Source of the DNA: Psammoneis japonica
Lineage: Eukaryota
DNA: 64,000 nucleotides
Direction: 5' to 3'
Assembly: GCA_008632985.1 (NCBI GenBank)
Contig: QPGO01000119.1
Span: 186,001 to 250,000 of the forward strand
Position numbers and translations under genes: made by a program. This document shows positions 9,661 to 64,000 of the stretch, piece after piece; position 1 is the first letter of the stretch, and each line of letters starts with the position of its first letter. The notes beneath the pieces are model-generated. The model saw only the letters and a program-made list of their open reading frames with translations. It made no database searches and was not told the origin of the DNA.

Positions 9661-10011
9661 TTGAGTCTCTCTATGTGGCTTTGTGCTGTAGCTAGAGGTG
9701 TTCTCTCGAGTCATCCTCTACTGTACACTCTCTCCTCTCTACTCTAGAGACAGCTCTCTACCGGTGCTGTGTGGTGTGGCTGGTGGGGTTCGGTGTGCCG
9801 ATCGATTCTTCCTTCGCGGTCGCGAGAGCGAGGGAGAGCTCGCGCGATCAAGTCGAGGGGGTCAAAAGATCTCCTGCTGCTTTTTTTTTTCGCAACAACA
9901 AATCAGAACACCATGACCTTGCGAATTACAGTAAGATCGAACGATACGCCGTCGGCATGAGTTCAGAATTCCTCATGCATCACGAGGCACAAGTAAGATT
10001 TCAATAGAAGA

Positions 10012-13971: not shown

Positions 13972-14430
13972 GAGGAAGGAGCGATGTTTGGGTGTGCAGA
14001 CATTTGGCTTCCAGCAGCAATGTGCCAGCAGGAGGCACTGGCTGTGGCTGTGTGGCTGGCCCCAGTTTGTCAACAGCATTTCTTTGGTTCTGTGAGACTG
14101 TGGTGCTCATTTTTCTCTTTGCCAAGCCTGGTTGGATGAACAAAGCTGGCCCAGAACCCCACTCAAGACAGTCAAATTTCAACATTTCCCTTCTTCATTC
14201 GAGACACCACAGTGAGGAAGAGATGTTTGGGTGTGCAGACATTGTTTGGCTCCCAGCAGCAATGCCAACAGGAGGCACTGGCTACAGCTGTGTGGCTGGC
14301 CCCAGTTTGTCAATGGCATTTCTTTGGTTTTGTGAGACTGTGGTGCTCCTTTTCCTCTTTGCCAAGCCTGGTCAGATGAACAAAGCTGCTGGCCCTGAAC
14401 CCCACTCAAGACAGTCAAATTTTAACATTT
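13972..14430 (+). repeat. Tandem duplication of a ~240-bp unit (~13972-14187 and ~14214-14430)
   Basis: Shared gatgtttgggtgtgcagacatt...ccccactcaagacagtcaaatt. Differences include TA/CA/TG swaps. Confidence 0.9.
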
Positions 14431-17026: not shown

Positions 17027-17090
17027 CCCCCTCCCTCCCTCCCTCCCTCCCTCCCNNNNNNNNNNNCCTCCTCCTCCTCCTCTTCCTCCT
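17027..17090. repeat. (CCCT)n/(CCT)n microsatellite flanking a short N gap
   Basis: Seen directly. Confidence 0.9.
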
Positions 17091-26799: not shown

Positions 26800-26898
26800 T
26801 TCAGAAGAATGCCGTTTGAAAAAACAAAGGGTGTGCAACAAATGAGCAGGCCGAAATCCCCGGTGGCATGTTGCCTTCACCTTCAAGAAGGCCCCACA

Positions 26899-26971
<73 letters not shown>

Positions 26972-41693: not shown

Positions 41694-43755
41694 TGTCATA
41701 AACCACTTGGCTGTTGTTTTGTGGGTCACCAAACTGTTAATGAATGCACACACACACACACAAAATGCACATGACAATGCATGTTGCATTCACCTCCCCA
41801 ATTGCACATCACAACATCATTCGTCAAAAACGGCACACAACACAATGAATGCTGACAGCCGTCAATGACATCACTGTGTTTGATCTTTGCTGTGCCATTG
41901 GCATGTGTCATTGTCATCACAGCATGCAGCCCTGCATGCGGCTGTTCTAATTTTTGGAAGTGTTTCTCGAGTGGTGTCTTCTCACCTGCTCTGTGGTGCA
42001 TGCATGGAGTGCACAGATCGAGCGTTTTCTTTGGCATTGTCTCCATTTGTGATTTGCTGTTTTTGCTTTTGGACAAACTTCTAATCAGCAACGTGTTGGA
42101 CATTAAAAATCATGTCTCTCTGTTGAAGACTGATTGTCCTGGTGCAGCTTGCACAGTGGCATGATGTGCACAGAAAGCACAGCAAAGGCTGCTGTGGATG
42201 GCACACCACAGAGTGAACAGATCACCAGCATCCAACGGTGAGAATGTTGTGGGTCAAATGCATGCAGCACATTGCCCAGCACTTGATGTGCACATTCTAC
42301 AGTTGTGCTCGACTGTGGATTTTGTGTGGTTGCAGGCTTGACTTTACAGCTCCACAGCCCTCTTCAACCATGTCTTTAAATCAGTGTCTGATGAGCTCAC
42401 TTCCACAGTCACGTGCAATTGACAATGGCCAAGGATGTCTGCTCTCAACCATGTTTGTTCCAACAGTCCAGCTGCAGTTGTGGATTCCTTGTTTGGAATT
42501 TCCACAACTTCAAACCATCTGGTTGCTGGATCAATCATTGTCAAACATTTCAGGGCTGGGGGTTCTTTGTTCTTTCCCTTGCAATGCACTTTGCATGGTC
42601 CAATGAGATCCACACACAGTCATTCCCATGGCACTGTTTCTGCACACTTGGGGGGGGGGGCAAATGTCCAAATGTCTTCTGTTTCTTTTTGAATTTTTGG
42701 CACATCTCACATTTTGACACACGCATTTTTGCATGTCATCATGCAGGGCAGACCACCACAAGTGTTTTGTGAGATGGTGTTTCTTCTGTTCTGTTTGTGC
42801 CAGGGTGAAAAAGGTGAGTGTGACACCAATCTGTTGTCACTGCCTTTTGCAATGTCTTTGGAGTGATGATTTTGTCCTTGTGACATGTGAGCAACCAGCC
42901 TCACTCACCTCCATGAAGAATCTTTGTGTGGTGTGTTGCGCCCGGCAATTTGGAGAGAATGTCTTTGTCCTGCTTTTGTTCAGTGTCAAGAACTTTGCAC
43001 GTCAACAGAAAGACATTGTCGCTGGATTTTGGTGGCAACATTTCAGCTGGTTCTTCATTGCTGAGGTTTTCCACAGGTTCCACTTTTTTCATGGTGAGTC
43101 TGCTGATTGCATTTGCAACAATGTTGGCCTTGCCCTTGAGGTAAATTGGTTTGGGACTGCACTCTTCCATTGTCAGATGCCAGTGCATGACTCTGTCCAT
43201 TGTGAAGTTTGTGTGTGTGAGATTTTTATGATCCATGTGCACATTCATCTGTTGGCCAAACAGCACGTTCCGGAACTCTTTTAACATCTCCACTGTGAAC
43301 AGCAGTTCTTTTTCTTCCATTTTAGCACAACGCATCTGTGCTCCATTCAGCTTGCGGCTGTGGAAAGCAACAGGCCAACTGTTCTGCATGACAACCACTC
43401 CCAATTGAGAATTGCTCGCATCAGCACACATCTCAAAGGGTTTGTCAAAATTTGGGTGTGACAGTGACATGTCTTTGGAGATGATGCGCTTCACATTTTT
43501 GAAGGCTTTTTCTTCCGTTTTGGTCCAATCCCACTTTGCCTGTGTTGAGGTGAGTCTGGCCAAAGGAGCAACAACGTGAGATTGTTGAGGCCACATGACT
43601 CGACAGCAGTTGATCATGCCGACAAAGCGTTGCAATTCTTTGTGAGTTTTCGGAGTTGTGATCTTGTTCTTTTGGATGAGTTTGATGCTCTGCTGAAGTG
43701 CAAGCCTCACCGTAATCCTGCCAATGTCATTGCCCAGTGCCTGAAGAAATGACAC
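41694..43755 (-). mobile_element. Degenerate Ty3/gypsy LTR retrotransposon remnant (RT C-terminus, RNase H, integrase, PPT and LTR start)
   Basis: FVGMINCCR, FDKPFEMCADAS..QLG, VAFHSRKL, EKELL, VHMDHKNL, KGKANIVANAISRL; integrase DLIGP..LTMIDPATRWFE; purine tract at 41789-41799 followed by TG on the minus strand. Confidence 0.9.
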
Positions 43756-43759
43756 GGGG

Positions 43760-44471
43760 ATCTGTTGCAGTCCGTCCTTTGCTCTGTGACTGCATCAGAC
43801 ATGCTGGGCTCTCCGAAGCTGGCTGGCTAGAAGCATGTTTGCAAGAAGATTGCGCAGCTGCAATGGTGGACAAGGACAATGTCCTTGTGACTTCATCATT
43901 GGATGGTGGAAAGGAAGGGTCTGGAAAAGGGCAAGCTGCTCGAGTCAGTTGAACAGCAATTCACGGTATCGTGCACATTCCGCATCATTGACATGCTCTT
44001 GAGACTTTGCGAAGAACACTGCATGCTGATCCATTGCCACAACAGACACCAGTTTTTGCCAAAAACTCTTGAAAGGTAGATGTCATTGTGGAAAAGCTAG
44101 AGAGGGCATGGGCATTGTTGCCGCCCCTCTTCACGGTGGACGAGGGAGTGAGAAGATTGCTTCAGTTACAAGAAGGCTAAGTTGGCATCGTTGTTGCTAA
44201 AGAGCTGACAGCACGAGGTCTCGACTCACCCCTTTTGACACATGTGATCAACTTTGATTCGCCAACAGATGCTTCGCACTACGCTCATCGCACTGGCCGG
44301 TGCGGGTGAGGTGGGAGACCAGGAGTTGTTGTCATCAACTTGACAACCAGTCCCCAAGAACGCAATGTACCGCAAAAGTTTGCCGATCAACTGGGTGTCA
44401 CCATGCATGCTGTTGAACCTCGAAATGGCAAACTTAACATTGTGGATCCTAGCTCACAAGACATAGACTAG
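43760..44471 (+). pseudogene. DEAD-box RNA helicase C-terminal domain pseudogene
   Basis: [24 protein letters not shown] (motif V) and [10 protein letters not shown] (motif VI, with the last Arg replaced by TGA at 44307). The frame ends at TAG 44471. The 5' part abuts the gypsy remnant. Confidence 0.85.
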
Positions 44472-46098: not shown

Positions 46099-47865
46099 GG
46101 TCGTGTGGTTGTTGTTGTTGCTGTTGTTGGAGCTCTCTTGTCGCTCTATCACTCTAGCTAGAGATCGATGTCTTAAAATTCAACACATCGCGGCAATGAA
46201 GGCAAGCAAGGCGCGGATTACGGTAGCACGTACATTTCGCGCGTACAGCACCCCGTTTCACCACGGTTCAACTTACGTGCGGTGGTATTAGCGTCGAATC
46301 ATATGACTAAAAATATTTCTTGTCAATTACAGACGATATCCCTGCTCATTACCGGCATGCACAGAAACGCGCAGCGAGGTCCTGAGCATTTTCGATGGCA
46401 CAGAACCTTGCCACGGGTTTCTGTGCCATCTACGACAAAGCTGCGTAGATTTGTACCGAAAAAAATCTGAGAACATTTTGGGATTGTTTTGAATTGCAAT
46501 GTTCACATTTAACTCACCTTGAATGTTCGAAAGAGACAATGTTCCAGCTGTTGGTTCAACAAGATGAACAGACACGATGACAGGATTTGAACAGGATTCA
46601 GGTGCGCGCGAAATGTCGCACGCTGTTTAGTTTGCCGCGCACAGTTTTGTGTGCTTTGGTTCCGCGCGTTCGCGCGCGATGCAGTTTGCTTTCGAGCCAC
46701 AAGGCTCACAAGAACAATGACAGTGGCCCGATCATGCCGACTCACACGTCTTTCGGCTCCTGCAACGGTCTCTGAGCGGAGACTCATCTGCTGTTTAGAC
46801 AGCAGCAAGGAGTTGTTGTTTGAATTCTTGCCATTTGCCTTCAATTTCTGTCAGATTGACAGTCTTGCTCATTGTCAACCCATTGAGCAACCGCCATCAT
46901 CGTCGTTGATTTACCAACGATGCCACTTCAATCCTGCGTGGACCTCCGTGTGTGTCCCACACACATCGGCAAGTCTGCGCGCATTCAATGCCAGGGCATC
47001 GGCAGGAAGTTAACGTCACCGTCAAGTCTCCTTGCCGCTGGACATCTGGATTGATTGCACCACCTTTGATCGCTGAAGACACACACTCAACGGTCACATC
47101 CAAGTCTGCCCTTGATCCTCATCCCTTGATGTGCCTGTTCATCGGTTGACGGTCAAGAACCCTGCACATTCAAGGATCTTCGTCGCTGAGGACATGCACA
47201 CACACACACATGTCTTCACGGCCAAGAACCTGCACCCACTCTTCGGACTGTGGTTTTGCCACCACTCCACAAGCACACCGAGTCCATTGCACCTGATCCA
47301 CCCCAGACTGCTGGTGCTCCACAGTTCTGCCAGGTCCACGAGGACGACTGTGAGAGCAAGCAGCCGTGATTGCAGCCTGCGTTGGGGCGAGGGTGCTTTC
47401 CCGCATTTGTTCGTTCGTCCACAGTGCCTGGCGCCTGCATCAACTGGCCAGCCTGATCGGGAAATCCAACCGACATAAAACAAGAATGGTTCGGGGGTCT
47501 TGTCCACCTCTGGTCAGCTTGCCTGCAGGGGTTTGCAACCTGCTGCTCCGCTCGCAAGCAACCCAAAGCGCCGCTGGCTGTGGGTTCGGACGTGCTGGCA
47601 CAACTCTACGGACTGGATGGGAAGTTTAGCACTTGACAACGAATGGGGTGGCACAACCCGGCGACTTCTGATTTTAAGATGGTCCAAGATTTCAAGTCAA
47701 GTCTAGCTCAAGTCACGTCTTTTTCAAGCCAAGTTCCAAGTCAAAACTCCGAGTCAAGATCGCGCTCTAGATTGGTTCCTGTCTTTTGTTTCTACTGCAC
47801 CGTCCTCCGTCATGGTTCTCACGTGACAGCAACAAACCGAAAGCTTCAAATACATTCTAGGCACT

Positions 47866-50412
47866 GTGCTCAATCAAGACGATGACAGCCCTCTTCGTTC
47901 TGCCCTGTCCACCAACGGGATTGAATCGTGCGAGGAATTGTTCACGTTCTTACCCACCCAAATTGACGCCCTCACTTACAGAGACGGTGCCAATGTAGTG
48001 CCTTTGCCACGGACCCACAGAAACCTCCTAGCAGCTTTGATCAGCTTCTACTTTGTCAAAGTTTGCAACGGTGATGATGTGACCAATGAACCCCAGTTGC
48101 TCACACCCGAGGAATTTCGCAACTGCAGCCTTGGTCCGGACTGCTTGACCTCTCTAGCCACTGGCGCAGCACCCTCCACACCTGTGCCGAGTCCCTTGCC
48201 ATCCAAACCAGATGAACCCAGTGCCATTTTGACACCAGCCTTGCACTGTGCCACCACTCAGGTGTCTCCTAGAAGTGGTGTCAGTCGCACCCCGCATGTC
48301 TTGACCAACCCACCTGCAAGCAACCTCGGCCCAGTGCAGGATTGCAGCCCTTGCACAGGCCCGCACTTCGAGACCAGTTGGGACACTCCACCCATGGCTT
48401 CCAAAGCTGCAGTCTTGGCACCCCGCAAACCACGTGCTGCCAACCTCCACGTGTTGACTTCTGTCGCTGTCACCCTTCACAGTCTTCGTTTGGGAAGTGA
48501 TGGAGGTGACAACTTGCTTCTCGTATCTCCTGATGGGGAGCCTCCTTTTCCCGTCATTGAATCTGTTCACAACAGTTCAACCGGTTCATCAGATGGGGAG
48601 TTCAGGACATCCAAGCAGCTTCGTTGTCTTCGGATCCTCCAAGCATCGCACCATGAGACCAGGCCTCCTGATTGGATGCCTCAAGTCTCGTACCTCGAGA
48701 CTGGGCCTCCTGATTGGATGCCTCAAGTCTCGCACCTCGAGACCAGGCCTCCTGATTGGATGCCTCAAGTCTCGCACCTCGAGACCAGGCCTCCTGATTG
48801 GATGCCCCAAGTCTCGCACCTCGAGACCAGGCCTCCTGATTGGATGCCCCAAGTCTCGTACCTCGAGACCAGGCCTCCTGATTGGATGCCTCAAGTCTCG
48901 TACCTCGAGACCAGGCCTCCTGATTGGATGCCCCAAGTCTCGTACCTCGAGACTAGGCCTCCTGATTGGATGCCCCAAGTCTCGTACCTCGAGACTAGGC
49001 CTCCTGATTGGATGCCCCAAGTCTCGCACCTCGAGACCAGGTCTCCTGATTGGATGCCTCAATGGATGCCTCAAGTCTCGTGCCTCGAGACCAGGCCTCC
49101 TGATTGGATGCCCCAAGTCTCGTACCTCGAGACTGGGCCTCCTGATTGGATGCCCCAAGTCTCGTACCTCGAGACTGGGCCTCCTGATTGGATGCCCCAA
49201 GTCTCGCACCTCGAGACCAGGTCTCCTGATTGGATGCCCCAAGTCTCGTACCTCGAGACTGGGCCTCCTGATTGGATGCCCCAAGTCTCGTACCTCGAGA
49301 CCAGGTCTCCTGATTGGATGCCTCAAGTCTCGTACCTCGAGACTGGGCCTCCTGATTGGATGCCCCAAGTCTCGTACCTCGAGACTAGGCCTCCTGATTG
49401 GATGCCCCAAGTCTCGCACCTCGAGACTGGGCCTCCTGATTGGATGCCCCAAGTCTCGCACCTCGAGACCAGGTCTCCTGATTGGATGCCTCAAGTCTCG
49501 TACCTCGAGACTGGGCCTCCTGATGGGATGCCCCAAGTCTCGTACCTCGAGACCAGGCCTCCTGATTGGATGTCCCCAGTCTCGCACCTCGAGACCAGGC
49601 CTCCTGATTGGATGCCTCAAGTCTCGTGCCTCGAGGCTGGGCCCCCTGATTGGATGCCCCAAGTGTCGTACATCGAGACTGGGCCCCCTGATCGGATGCC
49701 CCAAGTCTCGTGCCTTGAGACCAGGCCTCCCAACTGGACTCTCCACGTCTCGTGCCTCAAGACCGGGCCTCCCAATTGGATCCTCCACGTCTCATGCCTC
49801 AAGACTCGGCCTCTGGATTGGATCCCTCAAGTCTTGCGCCACGAGACTCGGCCTCCTGATTGGATCCCCCAAGTCTCACACCTCAAGACTTGGCCTCCTG
49901 ATTGGATCCCCGAAGACTCGTGTCACAACACTGGCAAGTCCTTTTGGATCCCAGAAGTCTTGCAGCACGGGACTGGTTGCCCCAATCAGACATCTGCAGC
50001 CTTGCACCACAAGATGTCTTGCTCCAATCCGATCCCCGAAGGCTTGCACCTTGAGACTCGTTTCTCCAATTGGATCAGTCTCTCAGGAGATGCAGTCGGA
50101 TTGGTGGAACACAAGACCACCGCTTGTGCCTTTGAACTGATGCTTGCTCTGTTCCCCGAGTCGTGCAAACGCCATGCCGCCTGCAATGTTGCCCCACCGT
50201 TCAACATTGTCAACCAGACCAAGCTTTGCTCCTTCCATTGCAAGCGCGGATGTGGAATCCCACAAGATCCCAAGTGTGCCTTGAGCTTTGAAAAGCACAA
50301 CGGCATCTGCAATTGGGGAGACGCAGCTCATCTCAAGATGACCCACTTGGAGAATGCAACGTTGCTCTCGGATCTTGATCCTTTCTTGTCTCCTCATGTT
50401 TTGGTGCTTTGA
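47866..50412 (+). CDS. Element-encoded ORF: gag-like N-terminus fused to 14-aa tandem repeats (ETRPPDWMPQVS[Y/H/C]L)
   Basis: DDDSPLRSAL..GI...EL......IDALTY...PL....L....F...LTPEEF resembles diatom copia gag N-termini. The ORF has no ATG start and is probably mutated. Confidence 0.5.
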   Translation: MLNQDDDSPLRSALSTNGIESCEELFTFLPTQIDALTYRDGANVVPLPRTHRNLLAALISFYFVKVCNGDDVTNEPQLLTPEEFRNCSLGPDCLTSLATGAAPSTPVPSPLPSKPDEPSAILTPALHCATTQVSPRSGVSRTPHVLTNPPASNLGPVQDCSPCTGPHFETSWDTPPMASKAAVLAPRKPRAANLHVLTSVAVTLHSLRLGSDGGDNLLLVSPDGEPPFPVIESVHNSSTGSSDGEFRTSKQLRCLRILQASHHETRPPDWMPQVSYLETGPPDWMPQVSHLETRPPDWMPQVSHLETRPPDWMPQVSHLETRPPDWMPQVSYLETRPPDWMPQVSYLETRPPDWMPQVSYLETRPPDWMPQVSYLETRPPDWMPQVSHLETRSPDWMPQWMPQVSCLETRPPDWMPQVSYLETGPPDWMPQVSYLETGPPDWMPQVSHLETRSPDWMPQVSYLETGPPDWMPQVSYLETRSPDWMPQVSYLETGPPDWMPQVSYLETRPPDWMPQVSHLETGPPDWMPQVSHLETRSPDWMPQVSYLETGPPDGMPQVSYLETRPPDWMSPVSHLETRPPDWMPQVSCLEAGPPDWMPQVSYIETGPPDRMPQVSCLETRPPNWTLHVSCLKTGPPNWILHVSCLKTRPLDWIPQVLRHETRPPDWIPQVSHLKTWPPDWIPEDSCHNTGKSFWIPEVLQHGTGCPNQTSAALHHKMSCSNPIPEGLHLETRFSNWISLSGDAVGLVEHKTTACAFELMLALFPESCKRHAACNVAPPFNIVNQTKLCSFHCKRGCGIPQDPKCALSFEKHNGICNWGDAAHLKMTHLENATLLSDLDPFLSPHVLVL
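48655..50076 (+). repeat. 42-bp tandem array: 25 conserved units (48655-49716, one with a 12-bp duplication) plus ~8 decaying units
   Basis: Unit GAGACYRGGCCTCCTGATTGGATGCCYCAAGTCTCGYRCCTC. Confidence 0.97.
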
Positions 50413-50759
50413 CTCCAAAGTTCTTCAGTCAATCCGAAGTCGAATCTGTTTCTGTGGCTCCTCAAGCAAACTGGGGAGTGACAGGATTTGAGCAGGATTC
50501 AGGTGCGTGCGAAATGTCGCGCGCTGTTTAGTTTGCCGCGCACAGTTTTGTGTGCTTTGGTTCCGCGCGTTCGCGCGCGATGTAGTTTGCTTTCGAGCCA
50601 CAAGGCTCACAAGAATGACAACAGCAGCCCGATTGTGCCGACTTGCACGTCTTTCGGCTCCTGCAACGGTCTCTGAGCGGAGACTCATCTGCTGTTCAGA
50701 CAGCAGCAAGGAGCCATTGTTTGAATTCTTGCCATTTGCCTTCAATTTCTGTCACACGA

Positions 50760-53700
50760 AACCCCGCCGTGTTGCTGCTTGTCGGCACCCTCGGAATGCT
50801 GCAACATTTCTTCCTGATTGTTGGCAACTGAGTTTCTTCAACTTCTGTGCAATTTCAAGCAAACAAGCATTGTGGGATGTTCCTTCGAAGATCAATGATG
50901 CAACGAGCTAATTGTCAGTGCATGATGCACTTGCGATGGCTGCCGAAACACTTCCAGCACAATGGCGAAGGTTTCGGGTTGAGAAAAAAATGTGCAATCT
51001 TCCGTTGCGGTCTTGCCATGTCACAAGTCTGCAAAAGATCTTGGCACCATTTCTACGCTGGTGCTAAAAATTTTGCTCTACAGACACAAATGTTGTGGAT
51101 GAACCGTGGTGGTTTGTTGGTGTGTTTGCCACGTGCGCACTCTAGAAAGCAACGCATTTTGTGGCGCTGTTCAACATTGATTCATTTCAGTGCTTCGTGC
51201 TCTCGTGGATGGGAGAATGAACAAAAAATGCTTGCAAAAGCACAATGACAGAATGTGCTTCGACTCCGTTTGCGTTCGTCACTCGGCAGTTTCCAAGTGT
51301 GTGTGGCCACATGACAGCCTGTCAGAGACAGCAACACTGATGTTGCATGTGTTGTGTTTCTCAGGAATCAGGAAAGAAGTGAGTGTCAATGAATGAGACA
51401 TGCAAAACACACGTTGATTTTTGTTCTTTGTTGCCCGTGTTGGCGATGCAGGTGTCGAAGAGTCTCGATCTTGTTGTCCTTTGGTGTCAGTTTGTCTTCA
51501 TCGCACTTTGAATTCATGATTTCTGAACTGAATTTAAGCAACAACAGCACAGTCCAACAATGCCATTGTCATCACATCTTGCCTCACACATTGTTTGCTT
51601 CTGTTTTCATGCCCAAATGTTGTTCGAAAGTGTTGCTGCACTTGCGCGCACACTGCACTGAGATTCCCTCGGTCGGTGCAACAGATGTTTAGCCAACAGT
51701 GCCAGGTTGTCCAGAGTGATGATGCGGCAGCTTGGACAGCTGATTCGCTGTTGAGGTGACCTCATCGGCACGCAGACAAGCAATCAATCTTCTTGATGAG
51801 GATTTGCTTCTCTGAGTGTTTGGATCCGGACCAGCATGATGCAGTCGACATGGCATGCTGCCGCACTCTGCATGCTTTGTCAGAGCAGCTCTGGTTTCTT
51901 GCACACCATGGCAAGAGGCAAGAGAGAGCAGTGAGTCAGCCGTTTGTTGCCATGGTGGGTGCCAATCAACTTGCTTGCCCACTCATGTGCACCAATGGCT
52001 GCTGCTGCTGCCACCCAGATTGCACAGGCAGGCAGCACAAGAGAGCAGGTGCCATCCAACACCACCAATGACAAGCCCAGAAGTCCTTGCTGGCACAACA
52101 TCAACATCTTTTTGTTGAGCTTTTTTGTGCTTCTATTTGAAGGCTTGGTTCCTCCAAACACTGGTGTGCTGGCATCTCTTGCTTGCACACAGTGTGCTTT
52201 CACCTTTTTTCTCCAGCAGCCTGCAAACAACAAGTGATTGAGAAAAGTTAAAGAAACACAACTGCTGTGGTGTGACACACACATTGCTCAGCAAAGATGT
52301 GGGCAGGTTGAAGCACCAAACCAATGTTGCTGTGCTGCTGCTTTGAAGCATTCTTTGAACACCCAGCTGAGCATGCACAAAAGTGAAGCCAGCCCAGCTG
52401 TTCAGCAAAGAAGCAAGAAAAGTGACAGACAAAGTGCTTTTGCATGCCCCCCCCCGTGAAGAGCTCCTGTTGCTGTTGGAGCTTCACCACTTGCCAGCTG
52501 GTGTGCATTTGGTCTCACCATGATCTCTGAGCCTGCTGCGTGGCTTGCAAAAACACGTTGCCATTGTTGTCAATCACTGTTGCCATGTTGGCCAGGTGCA
52601 GAAGCTAAAAAGTGAACACAACAAGACCTGCAACTCAAACCAAGTTGCAAACACAAACTTGCCACATTGTCCAAAATTGTCGCCAGTGTGCATCACACTG
52701 TGACTTTGTCTGTCTGTCCTGCAAAAACTGACTCTGACCTTGATGCTCCAACACACTTCTTCACACAAGCCATGTCAACTGGTCAACCTCATGCCCATCA
52801 AGCATGGGTGGATGACACTTGGAAACCATGCAACCCAACAACATGTTGGCTGTTCTGCCAATTCCAATGGCCCACATCATCCAACTCTGCTGACAGTGAA
52901 CGATCATTGTCAGGGCAACCCTCCTTCTCACATGCCCAACAAACTTGTTGCATTGCCAGCACTCAATCTGCTTCATCTCACTCCATGCAAAACTTGTGCC
53001 ACCCGGTTTCTTGTTGGTCCTGCAGCAGGTGTGTCCAACACCCATGGTGCCTTTTCAGCTGGATTGGGGTGAGTGTCAACCCCCAATGTGAGCCGCTGAT
53101 GCAGGTCTTTCAAGACTTGCCAGTGTGTTCCTTGGCACCTTCCACTGGCATCGCCACCAATGGCTTGTTCCTTTTTTTGTTCCAGGCGTCATTGACATCC
53201 TTGCTGGGTCCATCTTCTTTTTTGGTGATTTCTTCCGTCCGGGATGATCCTGCCACAGGACGTGTGTTTCCACTCCTGTTTCAACTGAGCTTGCAAACCA
53301 ATTGTGCCAACAATCTTAAAAAAAGTGCTTCCACCTCATCTTGATGAATGAGCGCCAGCTGCTTCCAAGCCTTGACTGCCTTTTCGTTTGCATCTGACAA
53401 GATCGACTTGCCACATTGCCCGCCACAATCGTCGCTCAGTGTGTCTTTGTCTGTGTCTGTCCTGTGAAAACTGCCTCTAACCCCAATGTTCCAACAGGTG
53501 CATGCTGGACCAAGTGGGTCGAGAAGCACACGGCGGATGAAAAAATGAAATGCTGGTCATGTTGCAAGAACAAATCATGTGGGTGACCCTCAAATTGTTC
53601 CACGAAAATGAGTCACGGAGATGATCATAGACAAATTCAGTCGAATGAATCAACCCACGACCAATGTTGATTCGGGCAATGCGTGAGGTCATTCAATGCT
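50760..53700. repeat. TpA-depleted degenerate block
   Basis: TA is rare throughout; CG is also rare at ~51900-53100. Confidence 0.6.
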
Positions 53701-53834
53701 TGCCTCGTGAGCCCTCCTTCATCTTTTCCTTGTCACACGGCACCCGCACATGATCGTAAAATTGTGCCCAGTGACAAGACACTGTTCACAGACATTCTAA
53801 CATCTTAGAATGTCCTGCTGCAAACGATTTTTAA

Positions 53835-55070
53835 TTGAGCCCCGGGTGGTGTGGTTTTCACCACGACGTCCATCCCATTTTTTCTCGTCATGTTTGGTTT
53901 GAGAACAAGTCCAAAAGATCCAAAATGAGGACCATGCGTTGCTTTGTCTCTTGGACGCCAGTGTTGAGTGCCCCATTTGCAAGGGGTGAGTTCTTGTGTG
54001 GCACATCAAAGGCGCCTGGAGAGACAAACGGACATGGAGGTCTTGAACGCGACGAGGTCAACGCACCAAATGGTGCGACATGCACAATTTACGGAGGGAT
54101 CAAGGGATCGTCTCCAGCCACGATTTATGACAAAGTCCAAGTGAGTGGGGGAGCGACACTCATCATCACTGGACAAGTCACCTTTGAAGGAGAGATCACT
54201 TTAAAACGTAGGAGCAGTTTGGTTGTTTCATCTGAAGAAAATGTTTGTCCAATGTTCAAGACGGGCATCAAGGCAAAAAGAACGAGCCAGGTTTCCATTT
54301 CAGCAGAGGGATGCTGCGTTCATGTGGGCAGAAACCTTGAAGTCTGCGAAAGTTCCGGATCCAGTTCCAGTGTCGAGATCCAAGGAGTCCCAGCAGACAC
54401 TGTCACAGTTGACAAGAATTCTGTTCACACTCTCAAGACAGTCAACAACATGTTGAAGAGAGGAAAGTCATTGATCGCATCAAAGAACACTGTGACGGGC
54501 TCCAAGAAAGCTTTCATCAGCATGAACTCCAACACCAAGAGGATTGCCATCAAAGGAAACAAGTTCCACGCCATTGACATTGTTGGCAACGTCGCAACTG
54601 ACTCAATCGTGTTCAGTGGGAATGCGCACAACTCAACGTTAGTTTTTCAAGACAATGATTCAGGCAAGAAAATGAAACTCAAGAACAACGATGGCGCAAA
54701 AGGAAGATCTCTTGACTGTCAAGGGAACGTCGTTGGTGGGAAGTTCATGGTGAAGAGACGGTGCAAAGCTCCAAACCCTCAGAAGCAAGTCGCAGCTTCT
54801 AATTCTTCCCCATCAAGAAGCCCGCTGACGAAGGAATTAGAAACCGAAGGCACAGACCAGAACGGTGAGACAGGCGGTGGTGCCACGGCACGTGCTCTCA
54901 CCCAGAATCCCACGCCTTCGCCAACACCACCGCCAACGACACCCTCAACTCAGGAGCCGACGCCCGAGCCAACCACAAGAGAAACGGCTGAACCAACTCC
55001 ATTCCCGATGCGAGCTGCGACAAACAAGTCGGAGGGAGGTCTTGAGGCACAGACCACCACAAAAAAGTCA
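53835..55070 (+). pseudogene. 5' part of a host gene (beta-helix-like Asn/Gly-rich repeats and PT-rich linker; probably extracellular) interrupted by the LINE
   Basis: The ORF runs ...NPTPSPTPPPTTPSTQEPTPEPT...TTTKKS up to the TSD and continues in frame at 63135. True start uncertain. Confidence 0.7.
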
Positions 55071-55184
55071 AAACAAAACCAAAATTCCATGTTTGCAGTG
55101 CTGCCACGCTTCCACCCTGCAACTCCGGCAACAAGCCAACCCACACCCCCAGCGCACTAAAAGTGCGGCAGGAGCAAACAGTGG

Positions 55185-58100
55185 TTAGCCGAGATCGGCG
55201 TCACCCGAGGGTGACGCCAAGCCAAAATAACTTGCGATGGTTCTGGTGCCTCGTGCAGCCAAACATTTGGCTTCACGCATGCTTGATTTAAAGACTGGTT
55301 TGAACATGGCCAACCAGTTTCGAATCCGGTGAGTGGAGTGTGACAGGTGTTCTTCTGCCGAATCAAGGAGGAGCGCCTTGTCTCTTGCAAGACAATTGTC
55401 TGTACGAGAACAAATGGCCTTGACCTCTGCTTCTGCGTCTCGTCTTTGAGACGACTTCCTCGTTTCCGAATCGTGTCCGTGCACAGCGTCGTTGTGAGCG
55501 TCCCAGAGGTCCCACCACTGCTCCCCACATGAAATTCCCAATGGTTGCAGCCCAATCCAGCCATTTCTGTTGATCTGAGAGAGTCCGACAAATGCCGCTC
55601 GACGAAAGGTGAGAGGTTTGCGTCGCATTCCACTGGACAGAAAAACGGCCATTAAACAACTGACGCCAACCTGTTTCCCCTTGGGAATGAAATGCGGGCA
55701 CGACGCTGTGATGAAATTGTTCTGAGTGCAAAAGCTCGCCTCGAAACCATGCTTCAACAGCCGAAATTATCAAGTCTCGTAAGGAAGGAGACATGTGAAC
55801 ATCATCGCACTTCTTGCGCAATCCTTGCAAAAATTTTCTGTGCCAGGCTTCATTGTGAGGGCAACGGAGAATGTGATCTCTGTCTTCCATGGGGTCCTGA
55901 CAGTGAACAACAACAGTCCGGACGTGTCGGATTGCATCTGTGCACAATCTTGTTGGTGGGCAGAAGATCTTGAACCAGCTTGACGGCACTGACTTTTCGA
56001 CGAATGTTTCGTGACATCAATTTCGAATGAACGTCCCAATCAATCGATGCGCACACTTCGTCGGACCAACTGTGTTTCTCTTTCATGTGCTGAACCAGTG
56101 CAGGACTCGATGCCTGACATCTGACAACCGGCTTGCATTTGGAAGAAACAGTGGCTCCTTGAAGAAGCAGGTTTGCTCGGCAATGAGGCATGCGGGGAGC
56201 AGCAAGAGCATTGCCCGTAAATCGACCTTGGAATTGTCCAGCGAGTCTGTCGGCACGTGTGTTCAACTTCGCCGCTTGAGAGAGAGAGTCAATGGGAAGG
56301 ATGTCATCTTGGTGTCCCTTCACCCAGTGAATCTCGACTGTGGGACACGACAGTTCATCAGTGCGTGCTTCTGACAGCTGTCTCAGGGAATGGAAGACCT
56401 CATTGACAACACCCCAATCCGGAGAGAGAGCATCAGCAATGTGAAAACGCCAGTGGAAGTCTCCTTGGATCTCCTCCTCGTCGGCAGGATGAGGAATCAC
56501 CTGGAAATTCGAGACAGTGCGAATGAGAGCGGAATTGTCGCAATGCAAATCAGCGCCGCTGACCTGTGTAGAACAACAGTCTGACAATCGGATCAGAAAA
56601 CGGAGAAAAGACAGTGGACCGCATGCCTCCGCACGACAAGACGATGGGCGAAAACCGAAAACTGGACCGGCACAATCCACAAGAGGAACCCCGTCGATCG
56701 CAATCGTCCACCCGAACGTGCCTTTGAAATGGAGGACCGAACCGTCGCCAGCTGCTGAAACCTTGTGGGTGACGAGGAGCTCAGCGATTTCAAATGTAGA
56801 CCGATGTAAATGCAATTCTTCGAACAGAGCAGATTCCCACCGAGGAAGAGACCGCAGCATGGCCAAGAAATCATTCGGGACGGGAGGGACTGTCGGCAAG
56901 GACACTGGAGAACCGAATGACTTGATCCGCCACAAACCGGTTGTAGTCGTAACTGCTGGCACAGGGGAAGCGGCTGGGGAAAGATCTGGAACGTTTTCCA
57001 GAGCAGCAAGAGTCTCCGCACAACCTTGGTGCACTGGGAAAATCTCGAAACCCGAATCTCCACGAATGCACAAGTGATCCTCGGAGGATTCGTAATGTGC
57101 GACATGTGTCATGCGCATTTCCGTAGCTGGTGCAACCCATTGACCTAAAGGGTGTCGCAGATCGAGCGAGTCTGGTTTGCAAAACAAGGAACAGGCTCGA
57201 CGCCACTGTTTCCATGCCCGAGCGGATGGACGTTGTTGTTCGATGGGATTCAGAGTGCTGCGACTGCTGAGAAGGAACGATCGGCCGTTCACTTTAAAGG
57301 GATCGAGCGAAAAACCATCTGGAGAGGCAACATCCGACAGAGTCAAAACATTTGGATAAAGACGACAGTGGTTGACCCACTGCATCTCACGATCACTGAA
57401 CACCTGGGATTGAAGTGCAATGTCCATGATGCATTGGTCGTTGTCTCGCTGGAGTGGAAGCACTCCAGCACAATCACAGTCGATGGTGGCATCGATCCGG
57501 GCCAAGAATGAATGCAAGGACATGAACCATTTCGATTCGGAATGAGGGAGCTTGGCATGGACGTCCTGAAGAAAACTCACACCTGTGCCAAGCTGCAACT
57601 GAATCCACAATGCAGCGATTTGCGACAACACCTGAGGTTGCCCAGAGCCCCGCCAGTGGGTGAGAAACTGCAGAACCTGCGCTGCACCCTGTTCCACGTC
57701 TAAAGACCTGAAACCACCGCCTCCCAGGGAATGAGGTCCGAAGAGGACGTCACGTTTCGAGTTCCGATTGCACCCGCATTTGGCAAAAATGGCACGCATG
57801 GCCTTCCTCTGCACTTCGAGCAACTCTTTCTCCTTGAAGTGAGTGTTCGGGAGAACATGCGTGGTTGCAGACAGATGACAAGCAAAATGGTGAGTCCATG
57901 ACTCGTGTCGATCTAAAGGACAAGACCGAAGGAAAAGGGCAATGCCGTCACTCTTTTGTTTCAGAGCCGAGTGCTGGGTCTTTTGAGTCCCCGCTGGAGC
58001 TTTGCAGTGTCCAAGTGTCTTGTGAGAAGAGCATGCGGACAATTGTTTGCTTGACCCGGTCGTGGTGCGGTCTGCAGAAGAGATTTCAATGTCAATGTCC

Positions 58101-61076
58101 TCGTTGTGGGGTCAAAGGTGAGGTTCGCCGTCCTCTGTAAACATCCATTCGACAGCGTGGAAGGAGCATTTGGGTAATTCTAACTCGTGGCCAGCCGCGT
58201 TCAAAAGGTCGCACCACAGTTGATTGTCTTCCTGCATCTTGAAAGCCAAATCGAGGATGCAAGGTTGAGGACTCGAACAAAAATCGTTCACCTGCTTGGA
58301 CGTGTCGTCGACATGTCCTCCATTGAACATCTGCAGCGAGAGGGAGTGATCTGGGGACTCGAAAAATGCACCATGTGCCCGTTGATCGAAGATCTGGAAC
58401 AGACCATTGCAAATTTGGTTCCAGCAAAACGGAGAGTTTCCGCTGCCCTGTCCTGTTCCGTAAATGGGGAAGTCATCAGAGTGAGAACAAGAAGTTAGTG
58501 ACAGGCCCAGCACCATTCGCAACCAGCAGCGAGCCTTGTGAACAGTGGCGTCAGCGACTTGAGTGACTTCTTTGGGCATGCCATTGCTGCGGCTCTCAAT
58601 TGCAACCAGAGCGGGAATGTTCCGATCGCAGCACGATGTGCAGTCATCATCGCTGTGAACAGCGGATTTTCGGGAGGCACGGCCAATCTCGAGCATGAGT
58701 TCTTCAAGGCACACAGGAGTGTTGGCATTTAAGAAGGCACGAGTGCCGCAGATCCCCGAGTTGCACAATCGGCGGTGTTCCATGTTTTGGGCCAGAGTGC
58801 GCCACTTGACGCTCAAGATTAATTGAAAGTCAGCTTTTGCAGATGTGGGTGACACGGAGACGATGCATCTTGTTGTTGCCTGGCTCTTTAAAGATCATCA
58901 CGTTGACAACATCTTGCCAGCGGTGAAAGGAGTGTCCCCAACGAAGGGCACAGTTAAGCAGATTCAACCTGATTTGAGCAAGGGATTGTTGAACTTCATC
59001 GAGGGCCTCACATTCAGGGGCAGGATTGCCTTCGGAATCAGCTGCATCTGAGAACCGATGAGGAGCATGCATTGCTTTCCAATGACCTGGGTGGAGGCCG
59101 GAGCAAATGGACGTGGAGGTGGATTCTTTCCAACGTTATATTTTTCCTTCGAGATCTGATGCAGACAGAAGATTTGGTGCAGAGACTGGGGAACGGCGAC
59201 GCAAGTGGTTGATGAAAAGGGCAGTTGCTTCGTTCAAAGCCAACGTGTCACACTCGCCATCAAGAATGAGATCCGCCACAACAGTGTCACCTTCGTGGCC
59301 TGGGTCCATGGATGACGGAGGCACCGTTGGAGGGGTGCCTTGTGCCTGACTGAAGTGTTTTTGATTGCGTTGACGGAGAGCAGTGGCTGCCTCTTCCGGA
59401 GCGTCAACAGTGGTCCAATCTTGACATTCTTTGGGAGGAACAGAAGGATTGCCGGGAACTTGGACGCTCTGAATGCCTGTGTCCCTCTGAGTGCGGCATG
59501 AGTCAATCTTCCTGAACAGCTTTTTCATCTCTTCTGCCTTGCGGACATTGCGCAAGACAGTTGCCTGTTTGCGTGACTCCTTGGTGCCTTCCAGATCGAG
59601 TGCGGCCATCCTCTCGGAAACTTCCCTTTCGCGGTGTACGACACTGTCAGCCGCTGATCGCTTGCAATCGTCTTGAGCAGCACACAGCACCTCTTGACAA
59701 CCTTGCAAAGTGTCGGGGACAGTGAAGGATCCACTCAGTTTGTCTCGCATTGCTCGAATCTGTGATGCGCAGTCCAATTTTGTCCTCATCATGGATGCGA
59801 GGCGGGAAAAGATGTGCACCCGGTACCTCAGGTCTGAAAGTTCAACCGACCAGTCGGGTTCGCAATGAATTCGGCATTTCTTGGCAGCGGAAAGAGAGAA
59901 CTGCAGGAGATCACGGTCCAACCGTTCAGCCAGAGCATGATCTGGAGCGTCAAGTTCCAGCAGCTGGAAAGAGCGTTGCAATGCCGAACGACTCTGAATC
60001 ATTGGGCCGATTGCCTGTAGACAAGAGGTGAGCTGTGGTTTAGACGTAGCCTGAATGTCCCTGAAGGATGCCTTGGGTAAATCGACAGTCGGGTTGCCGA
60101 AAAGAGCTGCGGTGTCAAAGTCCACGAAGTGAGCACGATGATCAGAAGTGACTCGACATCCAAAGGCTTCACATCCACCGAAGCGAGCTGCAGCAAGAGC
60201 GCCAGGAGAGGCCAGTGCGCAGTCAAGACGCCGGGAACCTCTGGCACATGTGGAGAACTCAGTGTCGCCCATGATGTTAAACAGGACGTCAGACAAATTG
60301 AAGCGCTGGGCAACGGCAGCCAAAGAGTCAGTGTCACAGGTGAAATCAGTGTTAAAGTCCCCAAAAACAATGACTTCTCAATTGGAATCCGCCAGAAAAT
60401 CCTGCAAGACTCGGGACAAGTCTGCACAAAATGCCTTCCTGGGATCGAGTGACGGCGCCCCAATTGNCCGGAGGAGGGCCAATTGTTGAGCACATGCTGT
60501 TGTCTTCCCTGGGTGTTGTTGGTTCTTAGCGCAAACTCGACAGCAAGAGACAAACACAACTTGGCGTCCATTCCCACCGTCGAAGACTTGAATTGACCAC
60601 CTGCCGAGCGGGTCGGATTCTTGAGTCCGGAAGCAAGCAGAAATCGAATTACATGACAACAAGGCCATTCCACCCGGTTTGCATTGCATTGCAAAGGTGG
60701 TGGAACTGCTTGAAAAGGCAGACCGCCCATGATGTAAAGACTTGGAAACGGCAGATCTGCACATGGATGAAATGTCGAATTGGGTGGTGTCGAGGCACAC
60801 CTCCGAGATGCCAATGACATCGGCTTGAATTTCGGAGGCGAGTTGACAGCACTTGTTCACATCACCGCCACGCTTGTCGAATTTACAACCGTTGGCATTG
60901 AAGGCGTAAAGGCGCGCATGGTGAGAAAGCTTGGGCCGGAGTTCGTCGCCCACAGGTGCGTTGGTCTTCAGTCGAGAAAAATCTATCCGACGATCTGTGG
61001 GAGGGTGGCAACTGCGTCCGTCTAGGACATTCTGCCAAGCGAGAGCTGGATCTTCAGCAGAAGGCGAATGACTCAT
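55185..61076 (-). pseudogene. LINE ORF2 (AP endonuclease, reverse transcriptase, RNase H, C-terminal Cys/His motif), disrupted
   Basis: EN: FNANG, DVIGISE, KPGG, DPLGRW, SDHR. RT: FKEPGN..HRLRV.H, GTGQGSGNSP, HVDD. RNase H: GDGSV, RAEA.G, CDN, WVKGHQD, N..ADRLA. Also EDRDHILRC. Confidence 0.9.
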
Positions 61077-61125
61077 TGTTGGGCCATGCTCCTCCGAAGA
61101 GAAGACTGAGGCTTAGAGCACTGCA

Positions 61126-63042
61126 TTAACTTGGTGTTGGCTTGGAAGGAAAAACTCCGGCATCGTGAAGTCCGACGGAAAATTGATGTTGGCGCAAGTG
61201 GTGAGTGGGGCGAGGAAGCAACATCAGGAGGTCGCCTGATTTCTTGAGGGGGTGGAGGCGGTGAAGTCCAACCCCTGCCTGAAAATCCGTCTCCCGTTCT
61301 TTGTGGTCGCCAGGGCGTTCAGGAGTTTCCATGTTGTTGGGGCGTTTTCTGGCTGAACTCTGAACAGGTTGGTTTGCTTGAAGCAGTTGAACAATTTGGT
61401 TCATTTGTTCCTGCACTGCAGCCAACTGTTGGGAATGCTGAAACTGCATGGTGGCCATGTCCTGGGAGTGTTGTTTGGTGAAGGTGTTGTGCAAAGCTTC
61501 CACATCCTGAGAATGCTGTCGGCGGAGATCTGCCAGAGCCGCATCGTTCTTCTGTTGCATTTGTGACAGGGTCTGTTGCACTTCCGCCATCTGTGCTGAC
61601 GTGAGGGAAGAACTTGTAGACGACTGAGTCGCTTGAGCGCACAAATGCGGAGGGGACGAGATTCCTGGGTGTCCAGAACATCCGCAAGGAGTTGCCTGGA
61701 AGGAGGGCCTGGGGGCGAAGATTTGCGGAGTGACTGACGGGCTTGGAGAGTGGCCTCGACCAGGGGTGCTGCCACGACCATGGCCTCTGCCCGCGAACTG
61801 TGCCGGAGGAGGAGGACGGTTTGACCTCGAGGCCTGGGTGTCCGTCAATGGAGATACGTCTGAGAAGGTTGGGGACTCCAAACTGCGGATGCTCGCAGAC
61901 ACTGTGGATTTGCTGGTGTCGGACTGCTCGTCAAGCACACCAGACACGTGAGGTTGATCGGGAAACGGAGGAGACGGCCAAGATTCTTTGGGGACATTTG
62001 GAATTTGATCCATGATGCATGTGGAGATGCCAGCACGGGAAGCTTTGAAATCCGTACGTTTGACCAACACATTGTACCGACCAGGGGTGGCACTAGACTT
62101 GCAGATCTCTTTCACTCCGGAGATGGCCCTGATGTGGTTTTCCAAATAAAACATCACATCCGGGGAGGTGCACAACAGCGGAACCACGCAAGCATCATGA
62201 TTGCGACGAGCTTGGAGTTTGACAGCGTTATAGAAGGCGAGTGGCGACATGCACCGTGTCTTTGCCACAACAATGTGTGTCGGCAGCTTGTTGGAGGCGT
62301 GCAGCAAGGTTTTTCCTGCAGTGCGGCAATCGTCTTGTTGCACTTCGATGGCACAAGTGACGGTGCGAAGGGGAGGAGCCAATTGATCGTCATCGGCACG
62401 AATGGAGGTAGGTGCGAGACGAAATTTCGGCATCTTGGACTTGAATTCGCCCAGATCTTTTGCAAACAACTTGGTAGCTTCGTCGATCGGAGTGTGCTTG
62501 GATGGGGCAGCGACGCAACATGCCGGAGTCGCCGTGTCGATCACTGGCTCATTCCAGCAGTGGCGCTTCAAACCCATGTTGTTTGAGTCTAAAATGCTCT
62601 GAATATGAGGATGAGAACAGATCTCTCGAAGGGGGACTTTGGTCAAAATACGGTGGCACAGGCGGTGGACGACAGGGCGTTTTTCTCCACTGCGAGTCGC
62701 AGAAATCGTGAAGTGACGTTCGTGCTGAAGGGTTGCAATCCATTCTGCAATGTTGACATTGGTGATCTGGTTGTTGTGGTTGTCCAGGATCTGAACATCG
62801 TTGTGATACGTGAATAGGATTTGTTGCAAAACTTGAAGATGAGCGGTGGTGAGGGTCATCGGCTTGCACGTCGCCTCCGGGCCACGAACATCAAAGCGTG
62901 GGGTGATCTCCACATAGGGAGGCTCTTTCGGTTTAGAAGAAGGTTTGTTGGATGCGTGATCAACAGTGATATCGTCCGCCATATTGATATCGTTGTTATC
63001 GTTGGGGGTATGGCTACCGTCAGCGACGGAACGAGACGCCAT
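61126..63042 (-). CDS. LINE ORF1 (Pro/Ser-rich region and Gln-rich coiled coil)
   Basis: 638-aa ORF directly upstream of the endonuclease frame, starting ~77 bp inside the 5' TSD. Confidence 0.8.
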   Translation of the reverse strand: MASRSVADGSHTPNDNNDINMADDITVDHASNKPSSKPKEPPYVEITPRFDVRGPEATCKPMTLTTAHLQVLQQILFTYHNDVQILDNHNNQITNVNIAEWIATLQHERHFTISATRSGEKRPVVHRLCHRILTKVPLREICSHPHIQSILDSNNMGLKRHCWNEPVIDTATPACCVAAPSKHTPIDEATKLFAKDLGEFKSKMPKFRLAPTSIRADDDQLAPPLRTVTCAIEVQQDDCRTAGKTLLHASNKLPTHIVVAKTRCMSPLAFYNAVKLQARRNHDACVVPLLCTSPDVMFYLENHIRAISGVKEICKSSATPGRYNVLVKRTDFKASRAGISTCIMDQIPNVPKESWPSPPFPDQPHVSGVLDEQSDTSKSTVSASIRSLESPTFSDVSPLTDTQASRSNRPPPPAQFAGRGHGRGSTPGRGHSPSPSVTPQIFAPRPSFQATPCGCSGHPGISSPPHLCAQATQSSTSSSLTSAQMAEVQQTLSQMQQKNDAALADLRRQHSQDVEALHNTFTKQHSQDMATMQFQHSQQLAAVQEQMNQIVQLLQANQPVQSSARKRPNNMETPERPGDHKERETDFQAGVGLHRLHPLKKSGDLLMLLPRPTHHLRQHQFSVGLHDAGVFPSKPTPS

Positions 63043-63134
63043 GGTGTATCGGCAGTTCTACGGAGAGCGTGGTACTAAAAACACGTAGGTATATTCAGTA
63101 CAAGTAATCGCAGAATTATACCACAAAAAAGTCA

Positions 63135-64000
63135 GTAGGGGGGCATGTCAAAGGTCTTTCGTCCTGCAAACGTTCGGGAACCTTTGAAACGTACGCCCTT
63201 GTGGAACACACGCTGCACGATCCCGACGAGAGCAATGAAGAGATATTTCCAATCCTTGAAAGCGCATTTCGTGACACGTACAATGCTCTTAATGCCCCCA
63301 GTCAAGAAGAGCATGTTTGCGACATGGATTCGAAACGGGTTGTGGAGAGAGTCACGGTGGTAGAGACGGACCACATCTTGAAACACATGGAAGGCCACAA
63401 ACTCACCTCACGAAACTTTCTGTATAGAGTCACTGGAAGTTGCGAAGGTATTGGCTGCACAGAAGACACACATCTCTTTGACGTCGGCAATCGTAGAAAC
63501 GAGGAGAAGGTCCTTTCTGTGTTGGCGGACAAGACGCCAACAACCTGCGAGTGCGCTGGAGGCCTTACCGAAAATCGCGCACCCATGGAGGCAGAATTCA
63601 GAGATGCTTTCCAAGAAGCGCTCTTCGAGACTGAGGCTCATGGAAGCTTATCGAATTTGAAATCGGTGAACACTGTCATAGAATATGGGGTGGTTAACTG
63701 CGATTGGCAACAAGATGTGTTTGAAAGTGACTATGACTTGGATTTCACTTGTGATCCCTTGGAGAAAGACTTTGGCTATCTCGGTGACAGTTTCTTGAAC
63801 GAATACAACTCTGCCGCAACGTAAGTCCAGGAATATTTTTCGTCAAACACCGCATTCAAATATCTCACACTAACCGCTTTCACTATCACGTCCATGCAGG
63901 TCCTACTGCGACCCAGAGTTCCGCTACATTACGGAAGTGAGTGTCCAAGACGAAGAGCAGCCAATGCTAAGACACAGAGATTTGAATATTGTAACAAAGC
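63135..64000 (+). pseudogene. 3' continuation of the LINE-interrupted host gene (Cys-containing acidic domain; intron 63821-63899; runs off the window)
   Basis: VGGHVKGLSSCKRSGTFETYALVEHTLHDP... is in frame with ...TTTKKS. A gtaagt...tgcag intron is followed by SYCDPEFRYITEV. Confidence 0.75.

Follow-up and report, generated by a model that had tools for sequence, protein, structure and literature searches.

The 64,000-nt stretch analysed here (the window; Psammoneis japonica contig QPGO01000119.1, positions 186,001 to 250,000, forward strand) carries near its right end a long interspersed nuclear element (LINE) of 8,049 bp, inserted on the minus strand at 55071-63119. The LINE is strongly depleted in the dinucleotide TpA and rich in CpG, and a neighbouring long terminal repeat (LTR) element provides a clock by which TpA is seen to be lost after insertion, far faster than CpG. 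The features of the LINE and its borders are as follows.

55056-55070, unstranded: left copy of the target-site duplication, ACCACAAAAAAGTCA, a perfect match to 63120-63134
55206-61112, minus strand: open reading frame (ORF) 2, ~1,950 codons, start ~61112, end ~55206, the end being taken from tblastn with nine relatives
56240-56746, minus strand: RNase H-like region (DGS ... SSCRAEACG ... HCDN ... KGHQD ... AD), weakly supported as a domain
58304-58315, minus strand: putative motif C of the reverse transcriptase (RT), here HVDD; V-D-D is invariant in 18 aligned sequences, preceded by F or Y in the relatives
60138-60902, minus strand: apurinic-type endonuclease (EEP), PF03372, E 1.5e-11, 44.9 bits (cut-off 24.5), profile positions 3-225 of 225, one TGA read as X
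61129-63057, minus strand: ORF1, 643 aa, open, with 6 Tyr and no Pfam family matched
62801-63119, minus strand: 5′ end of the LINE, its last 319 bp, spared by both losses (observed/expected ratio, O/E, 0.95 for TpA and 1.35 for CpG), with normal flank beyond
63120-63134, unstranded: right copy of the target-site duplication, ACCACAAAAAAGTCA, a perfect match to 55056-55070

The insert is bounded on both sides by a perfect 15-bp direct repeat. The flanking plus-strand ORFs, 53835-55160 and 63108-63824, both translate this repeat as T-T-K-K-S in the same frame; the LINE thus landed inside an open frame and the repeat is its target-site duplication. The original prediction had placed the element at 55185-62600, where the longest common word is 7 nt; the perfect duplication that it reported is real but lies further out, and the element is longer than was claimed. 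For the part of the interrupted ORF upstream of the LINE (53835-55070), neither a Pfam family nor a relative among proteins of 226-721 aa was found. Self-comparison of the window revealed no long terminal repeat in the LINE. In contigs assembled from reads, single-copy DNA has a depth of ~57-59, the LINE body 219-584, its 3′-end bin 2458 and its 5′-end bin 113. These contigs derive from a run of one sample, from which the window may also derive, so that the two are not fully independent. The depth profile is that of a 5′-truncating family with a handful of long copies, and the element has the properties of the LINE class: a target-site duplication, no terminal repeats and 5′-truncated copies. 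The depth of 2458 at the 3′ end points to numerous short 3′ fragments or to a non-autonomous element with the same tail. That end (55071-55340) is a T/G-rich tail, in the sense orientation ...TTTTGGTTTTGTTT, without poly(A). Searching the window by tblastn with nine LINE relatives gave no other LINE pieces.

The element had been described as structurally complete. It is indeed full length, but it is dead, with three premature stops in ORF2 (TGA at 60378-80, TAA at 59136-38 and TGA at 58112-14) and at least three frameshifts. By tblastn the frameshifts lie near 58835, 55900 and 55524, and one-base indels relative to other copies are found at 55523/55526 and 55909/55910. The homologue columns at the three stops are highly variable and so uninformative on the origin of the stops. 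The LINE sequence contains an N at 60467. At its N-terminus ORF2 has the EEP endonuclease, as an endonuclease-type LINE does. In the rest of ORF2, ~980 residues align to ORF2 proteins of 1,900-2,100 aa (E 4e-220 and 7e-224), and the named ones among these come from two diatoms, Fragilaria crotonensis and Cylindrotheca fusiformis. The closest relative is 42% identical, in a 50%-cluster library and among proteins of 1776-5000 aa alike. A scan of ORF2 in the LINE copy itself gave no match to RVT_1 or any other RT family of Pfam. In an alignment of 18 sequences, the C-terminal part of this copy and 17 relatives, Pfam matches EEP in 13, RVT_1 in 11 (best E 6.9e-8), zf-RVT in three and RNase_H in one (E 0.003). 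Invariant in the RNase H-like region of all 18 are D717, G718 and S719, R754 and E756, D786, H861, Q862 and D863, and D882. The profile of the 18 sequences matched a single solved structure, the L1-endonuclease 2v0r, weakly (E 0.009). Judged by sequence, the LINE belongs to a diatom-type family with a predicted endonuclease, reverse transcriptase and RNase H-like part.

The depletion of TpA with abundant CG that had been noticed in the element is borne out by its composition. Between 55071 and 62800 there are only 62 TpA (O/E 0.143), compared with a CpG O/E of 0.821; for the entire LINE the values are 0.18 and 0.84. The baseline, pooled from the TpA-normal parts of the window, is 0.536 for TpA and 0.929 for CpG. 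On the sense strand of the LINE, TG and CA are raised to O/E 1.32 and 1.40. The reported count of two Tyr in a frame of 730 aa was reproduced (2/730, 0.3%, in 55853-58042), together with 4.0% Cys and 5.2% His. By comparison, Tyr makes up 2.3-4.8% of the residues in 31 relatives. Two alignments gave 29 columns (17 + 12) in which Tyr is present in at least half of the relatives. At these columns the LINE copy has Cys 15 times, His six times, Phe and Tyr three times each, and Trp and Asp once each. Control columns are largely retained (Trp 18/19, Phe 18/23, Asp 30/36, Gly 51/60). The change of TpA is from A:T to G:C, and since Tyr to Cys is TAY to TGY and Tyr to His is TAY to CAY, both strands are hit. 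All five motifs held to have lost aromatic residues are present, namely CKPGG, SCCRVC, SSCRAEACG, HCDN and HVDD, and relatives have Tyr in three of them (YKPGG, SSYRAEgYG and yCDN). HVDD corresponds to F/YVDD, mostly with F, and in SCCRVC only the middle C matches Tyr.

We also compared the window with the read contigs. Between 44001 and 64000 there are 323 differences, of which 310 are transitions; single sites were read from the 40 differences listed of 330. Nineteen of these 40 lie in the LINE, and they include at least five adjacent TG/CA doubles, at least seven sites that are CG in the contigs and TG or CA in the window, one site that is TA in the contigs and CA in the window and one of the reverse kind, with no other type of site among those listed. 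A TG/CA double is the trace of one ancestral TpA lost independently in two copies, and the double at 56088/9 sits in a Tyr-majority codon. The case that would have undone the original prediction, a LINE family in which codon choice or selection keeps Tyr and TpA low from the start, is thereby excluded within the limits set by relatives of 30-42% identity and by the listed differences. In its favour, TpA O/E is only 0.54 even in the normal parts of the window. Relatives with normal Tyr, the Cys or His found at Tyr columns, the doubles between copies and the TpA-rich 5′ end of the LINE all speak against it, and we regard it as extremely improbable.

The order of the two losses can be dated with a second element, which was found by self-comparison.

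46578-50754, plus strand: LTR element of 4,177 bp, O/E 0.19 for TpA and 0.66 for CpG

Its LTRs are 276 bp long (46578-46853 and 50479-50754) with TG..CA ends, a purine tract precedes the 3′ LTR, and a 5-bp duplication, CACGA, lies at 46573-77 and 50755-59. In contigs of two runs, X1 (depth 63) and X2 (depth 57), position 46571 is joined to 50754, with 4,182 bases skipped and 6 letters ambiguous. This number equals the element plus one copy of the duplication, so an exact empty site exists in the sample and the insertion is polymorphic or heterozygous. The two LTRs of one element are identical at insertion. The pair now differs at 11 sites (18 bases), without any transversion or indel: six TG/CA doubles, two sites with TA versus CA, two with CG versus TG or CA, and one or two other transitions. 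Each LTR keeps two TpA and 21 CpG, 20 CpG being kept in both and two lost in one. Counting visible events, at least 14 of 18 TpA site-copies (78%) have been lost since insertion, and 2 of 44 CpG site-copies (4.5%); once double losses in the same direction are allowed for, TpA loss comes near 87%. The doubles do not plausibly stem from CpG, as 20 CpG kept in both and two lost in one predict far fewer than one double loss. Loss of CpG in the pair is nevertheless well above the background of other sites. This result shows directly that TpA loss follows insertion, occurred independently in each LTR and is roughly thirty-fold faster per site than CpG loss. With the composition of the LINE and the nesting of depleted bins described below, it upholds the claim that TpA loss outpaces CpG decay. 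The LTR element looks non-autonomous, and its ORFs have no Pfam domain. It contains a GC-rich tandem array at 48632-49976 whose period is some multiple of 42 bp (self-match offsets 42, 84, 126 ...) and a contig depth in the thousands.

The LTR element and the LINE belong to one TpA-poor domain of 16 kb, from ~46578 to ~62800, whose left limit coincides with the outer end of the LTR element and whose right limit falls within the LINE, 300-500 bp from its 5′ end. At the left border TpA O/E is 0.55 outside and 0.19 inside the LTR element. Between the two elements the domain takes in the upstream half of the interrupted ORF, along with older debris.

53500-55070, plus strand: TpA-poor flank including the upstream part of the interrupted ORF, O/E 0.12 for TpA and 0.75 for CpG, at single-copy depth (44-67) from ~53850

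Contigs over 53852-55009 have a depth of 44-50 and the bin 54006-54672 has a depth of 67, while the bins beside it are raised by adjoining repeats (381 at 53339-54005; 2458 at 54673-55339, the LINE 3′ end). Since this single-copy flank is TpA-poor, repetition is not required for the loss. Contigs of depth ~60 differ from the TpA-poor sequence at 5 positions in 1,219 nt and at 2 in 1,011 nt, and in 51400-53195 TpA is restored at only one of seven differences listed. The contigs thus match the TpA-poor sequence with few differences that restore TpA, and the depletion is present in the reads.

The TpA sites that survive are biased in their flanking bases (R, purine; Y, pyrimidine). YTAR accounts for 154 of 965 TpA in normal regions, 23 of 62 in the LINE and 51 of 76 in the old blocks, and RTAY for 293 of 965, 9 of 62 and 1 of 76, respectively (Fisher p from 0.006 to 5e-21). 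RTAY is therefore lost most and YTAR least. An origin of this bias in new TpA arising out of TG or CA was rejected, as these would spread about evenly, with 23-26% per class. TAY drops more than TAR, and the TGY/TGR ratio climbs from 1.03 through 1.17 to 1.32; this rise of TGY over TGR suggests that A is changed to G within T-A-Y. All six oppositely resolved LTR sites are of mixed flank class, and the flank preference is accordingly claimed for survival only. Strand-coordinated patches were sought with a runs test of how TG and CA succeed one another, which gave no consistent signal (z = +2.3 in the LINE, -3.5 to +1.1 in TpA-poor blocks and -2.1 to -0.5 in normal DNA). The succession C-C-C-C-H-H-H-H among former Tyr codons is not significant by a hand estimate.

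Elsewhere in the window, older blocks have lost both dinucleotides, as had been stated for 13440-18250 and 26800-31840.

13500-18000, unstranded: older block, O/E 0.035 for TpA and 0.154 for CpG, no recognisable Pfam domain
27000-31500, unstranded: older block, O/E 0.041 for TpA and 0.129 for CpG, no recognisable Pfam domain

When the window was divided into 128 bins of 500 bp, 62 had a TpA O/E below 0.2, clustered in blocks. The CpG-poor bins are nested within these: 38 of 39 are also TpA-poor, and 16 TpA-poor bins retain CpG, all of them within one contiguous domain at 46.5-62 kb. Log-losses relative to the window baseline are 1.32 for TpA and 0.12 for CpG in the LINE, and 1.8-3.6 for TpA and 1.0-2.4 for CpG in the old blocks, values that fit constant rates with TpA at its floor.

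Two pairs of repeats were also seen. The members of one, 20921-21451 and 22675-23135, lie 1.7 kb apart; the first is TpA-normal and the second TpA-free, and the border of a TpA-poor block must therefore run between them. In the aligned parts, the second copy has TG or CA at 7/8 of the TpA and 9/15 of the CpG of the first, and no TpA is kept. The other is a 1.3-kb segment present at 4506-5792 and 9837-11250, ~5.3 kb apart, with 86% and then 71% identity and normal TpA and CpG. It looks like a tandem gene duplicate that was spared TpA loss.

The TpA-poor blocks also contain 68 ORFs of at least 110 aa in ~24 kb, several of the six frames being open. TAA and TAG are impossible without TpA, hence these long open frames, nearly all of which are meaningless. 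Only one of the 68 scanned gave a credible transposon domain, and three more matches (E ~0.005) were below the cut-offs.

42904-43794, minus strand: RT-RNase H fragment from the pol of an LTR retrotransposon, PF17919 (RT_RNaseH_2), E 1e-21

We consider it probable that these observations result from a domain-targeted process acting on DNA, which converts A:T to G:C at TpA and is of the kind described in the chlorarachniophyte Bigelowiella natans, far faster than CpG decay. On this explanation the LINE would have landed recently at the margin of a transposon island, within an open reading frame. Within the domain at ~46578-62800, TpA on either strand would then have become TpG or CpA by A:T to G:C change, presumably through deamination of adenine, and a chromatin or silencing domain would serve as the target rather than sequence repetition. 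The element would be killed through missense (Tyr to Cys or His), as stop codons could not be created by such a process. In the same DNA CpG would decay to TpG or CpA roughly 10-40 times more slowly per site, so that young insertions would be TpA-poor and CpG-rich and old ones would lack both. This CpG loss would reflect deamination of 5-methylcytosine (5mC), which is plausible from the diatom literature. The two losses may be separable mechanisms, the best support for this coming from outside the window, from the B. natans experiment.

One machinery, strong on TpA and weak on CpG, could instead act in the same silenced domain, the order of loss being no more than two rate constants. The nesting of 38 of the 39 CpG-poor bins would be expected from it too, and both losses yield TG or CA and have the borders of their blocks in common. 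ADAT2-type enzymes are reported to deaminate A and C in DNA (cited in the main text of 10.64898/2026.01.13.699255), and DNMT4, a relative of the fungal repeat-induced point mutation (RIP) enzyme RID, is frequent in diatoms (PMC9998398, in excerpt). The LTR clock, with its at least 78% of TpA and 4.5% of CpG lost, does not favour a single machinery, and according to the same excerpt DNMT5a-dependent CpG methylation of diatom transposons alone predicts CpG decay. The strongest counter-argument is external to the window: of the 231 hypermutations in B. natans, 230 changed A:T to G:C, all at TpA, and the main text of the preprint describes no accompanying C to T change. A single machinery is thus unlikely. 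Homology sensing like that of RIP, by which the DNA would be mutated because it is duplicated and not because of its location, could draw on the depth of the LINE body, ~4-10 times single copy, and the far higher depth of the 3′ end. However, the flank at single-copy depth is equally TpA-poor, the 5′ end of the LINE is spared although its bin depth of ~113 is still above single copy, the target in B. natans is single copy (10.64898/2026.01.13.699255, main text), and the direction of change is opposite to that of RIP. We regard this as quite unlikely.

Copying of an A-to-I hyper-edited LINE transcript into DNA would place the change before integration. LINEs have an RNA intermediate, and ADAR-type enzymes favour A to G change after a 5′ U, as also noted in the main text of 10.64898/2026.01.13.699255. 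However, the sense strand shows both TA to TG and TA to CA (15 Tyr to Cys, 6 to His), the LTRs of the neighbouring element diverged after integration, the non-LINE flank is changed too, and the loss is strongest at TAY, not TAG; editing of RNA is therefore highly improbable. Modified bases or assembly errors, with TA read as TG or CA, are very unlikely, since contigs of depth ~60 match the TpA-poor sequence almost exactly, other LINE copies in the reads bear the alternative TG or CA resolution, and in 51400-53195 the listed differences mostly leave TpA absent. What an artefact would explain is found at 54025-54940, where the assembly has G/C and the contigs have A/T at all eight of the differences listed, six of which are TpA in the contigs. 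These could represent an allele lacking the extra losses, mutation still under way in the culture or errors in the assembly, and they count against a domain-targeted process as well. Several further points weigh on the same side. The LINE may have received part of its TpA loss from a source copy that was already mutated, and at five doubles one contig, with a depth of 164-388, has the other resolution, so that several copies share it. The Tyr comparison rests on relatives that are only 30-42% identical. The 16 bins that are TpA-poor and have kept CpG amount to few independent cases, in which age and local methylation state are confounded.

A wider proposal joins these observations, and we offer it tentatively, as possible but not probable. 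The eraser of TpA would be a domain-guided, DNA adenine-deaminating defence common to Rhizaria and stramenopiles, and possibly old in the stramenopile-alveolate-rhizarian (SAR) group. It would be active in this strain, with haplotype- or culture-specific losses near polymorphic insertions, and would act independently of, and well before, the decay of methylated CpG. It would hit RTAY, leave YTAR resistant, spare the promoter-bearing 5′ end of the LINE and kill through Tyr to Cys or His missense without stops.

TpA-specific hypermutation of foreign DNA has been described once so far, in the 2026 preprint on a chlorarachniophyte. If the same signature is present near saturation in diatom retrotransposons, it would be no curiosity but a genome defence widespread among marine algae. 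Two dated insertions, the LINE and the LTR element with its empty-site allele, make it possible to compare how fast TpA is lost and CpG decays; the four-base preference constrains the enzyme, and the borders of the domain can be compared with maps of chromatin or methylation. TpA-free DNA also distorts gene and repeat annotation, as it yields long false ORFs in six frames and proteins that escape domain searches, such as the Pfam-invisible RT of the LINE.

The closest known system is that of B. natans, where two integrated viral regions received 231 of the 302 mutations seen in mutation-accumulation lines (Mettrop et al., bioRxiv 10.64898/2026.01.13.699255). According to the main text, 230 of these 231 were A:T to G:C, all at TpA, in some lines only and in single-copy DNA; RT and endonuclease-RT domains are over-represented in TpA-poor genes, and the authors propose an ADAT2-like adenine deaminase. 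As in that giant-virus and virophage DNA, the changes here are A:T to G:C at TpA on either strand, foreign or silent DNA is affected, and single-copy DNA is hit as well. Within this one window they are local, with sharp borders and a normal remainder. In the rhizarian the viral region has an O/E of 0.45, but in this diatom, a stramenopile, the loss has almost reached saturation (O/E 0.01-0.14). What is affected here are retrotransposons and the stretches of DNA between them, with CpG decay alongside and a flank preference for RTAY over YTAR; that main text never mentions diatom, CpG, flanking, context or trinucleotide. Our literature search found no description of TpA loss in diatoms, and the LTR-pair clock, the loss of RTAY with survival of YTAR, the affected single-copy flank and the spared 5′ end of the LINE are new here.

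For the slower loss, DNMT5a-dependent CpG methylation of diatom transposons is the nearest counterpart, and many diatoms also have a RID-like DNMT4 of unknown function (PMC9998398, in excerpt). The change of CG to TG or CA in transposon DNA, stronger in older blocks, resembles decay of 5mC at CpG as treated there. Such decay cannot alter TpA, and here CpG loss is the slower of the two. CpG to TpG or CpA change is also raised here, with at least seven private losses in the first 1.7 kb of the LINE, two in the LTR pair and almost no other change, and this may be a separate process.

RIP in Neurospora and other ascomycetes changes C to T at CpA, enriches TpA, makes stop codons and needs duplication and a sexual cycle. 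Like RIP, the process described here is transition-only, dinucleotide-specific and post-insertion; it ruins transposons in place and can reach neighbouring DNA. In contrast to RIP, TpA is erased and stop codons are removed, there is no C to T change at CpA with a gain of TpA, and the loss is not restricted to duplicated sequence, as the single-copy flank (depth 44-67, TpA 0.12) is hit. In animals, deaminases edit retroelements before or during integration, ADAR on RNA and APOBEC3 on one cDNA strand. As in these, the hypermutation in P. japonica consists of transitions in mobile elements, is driven by the host and prefers a certain dinucleotide; unlike them, it has changed both strands, the LTRs after integration and a flank that is not part of any element.

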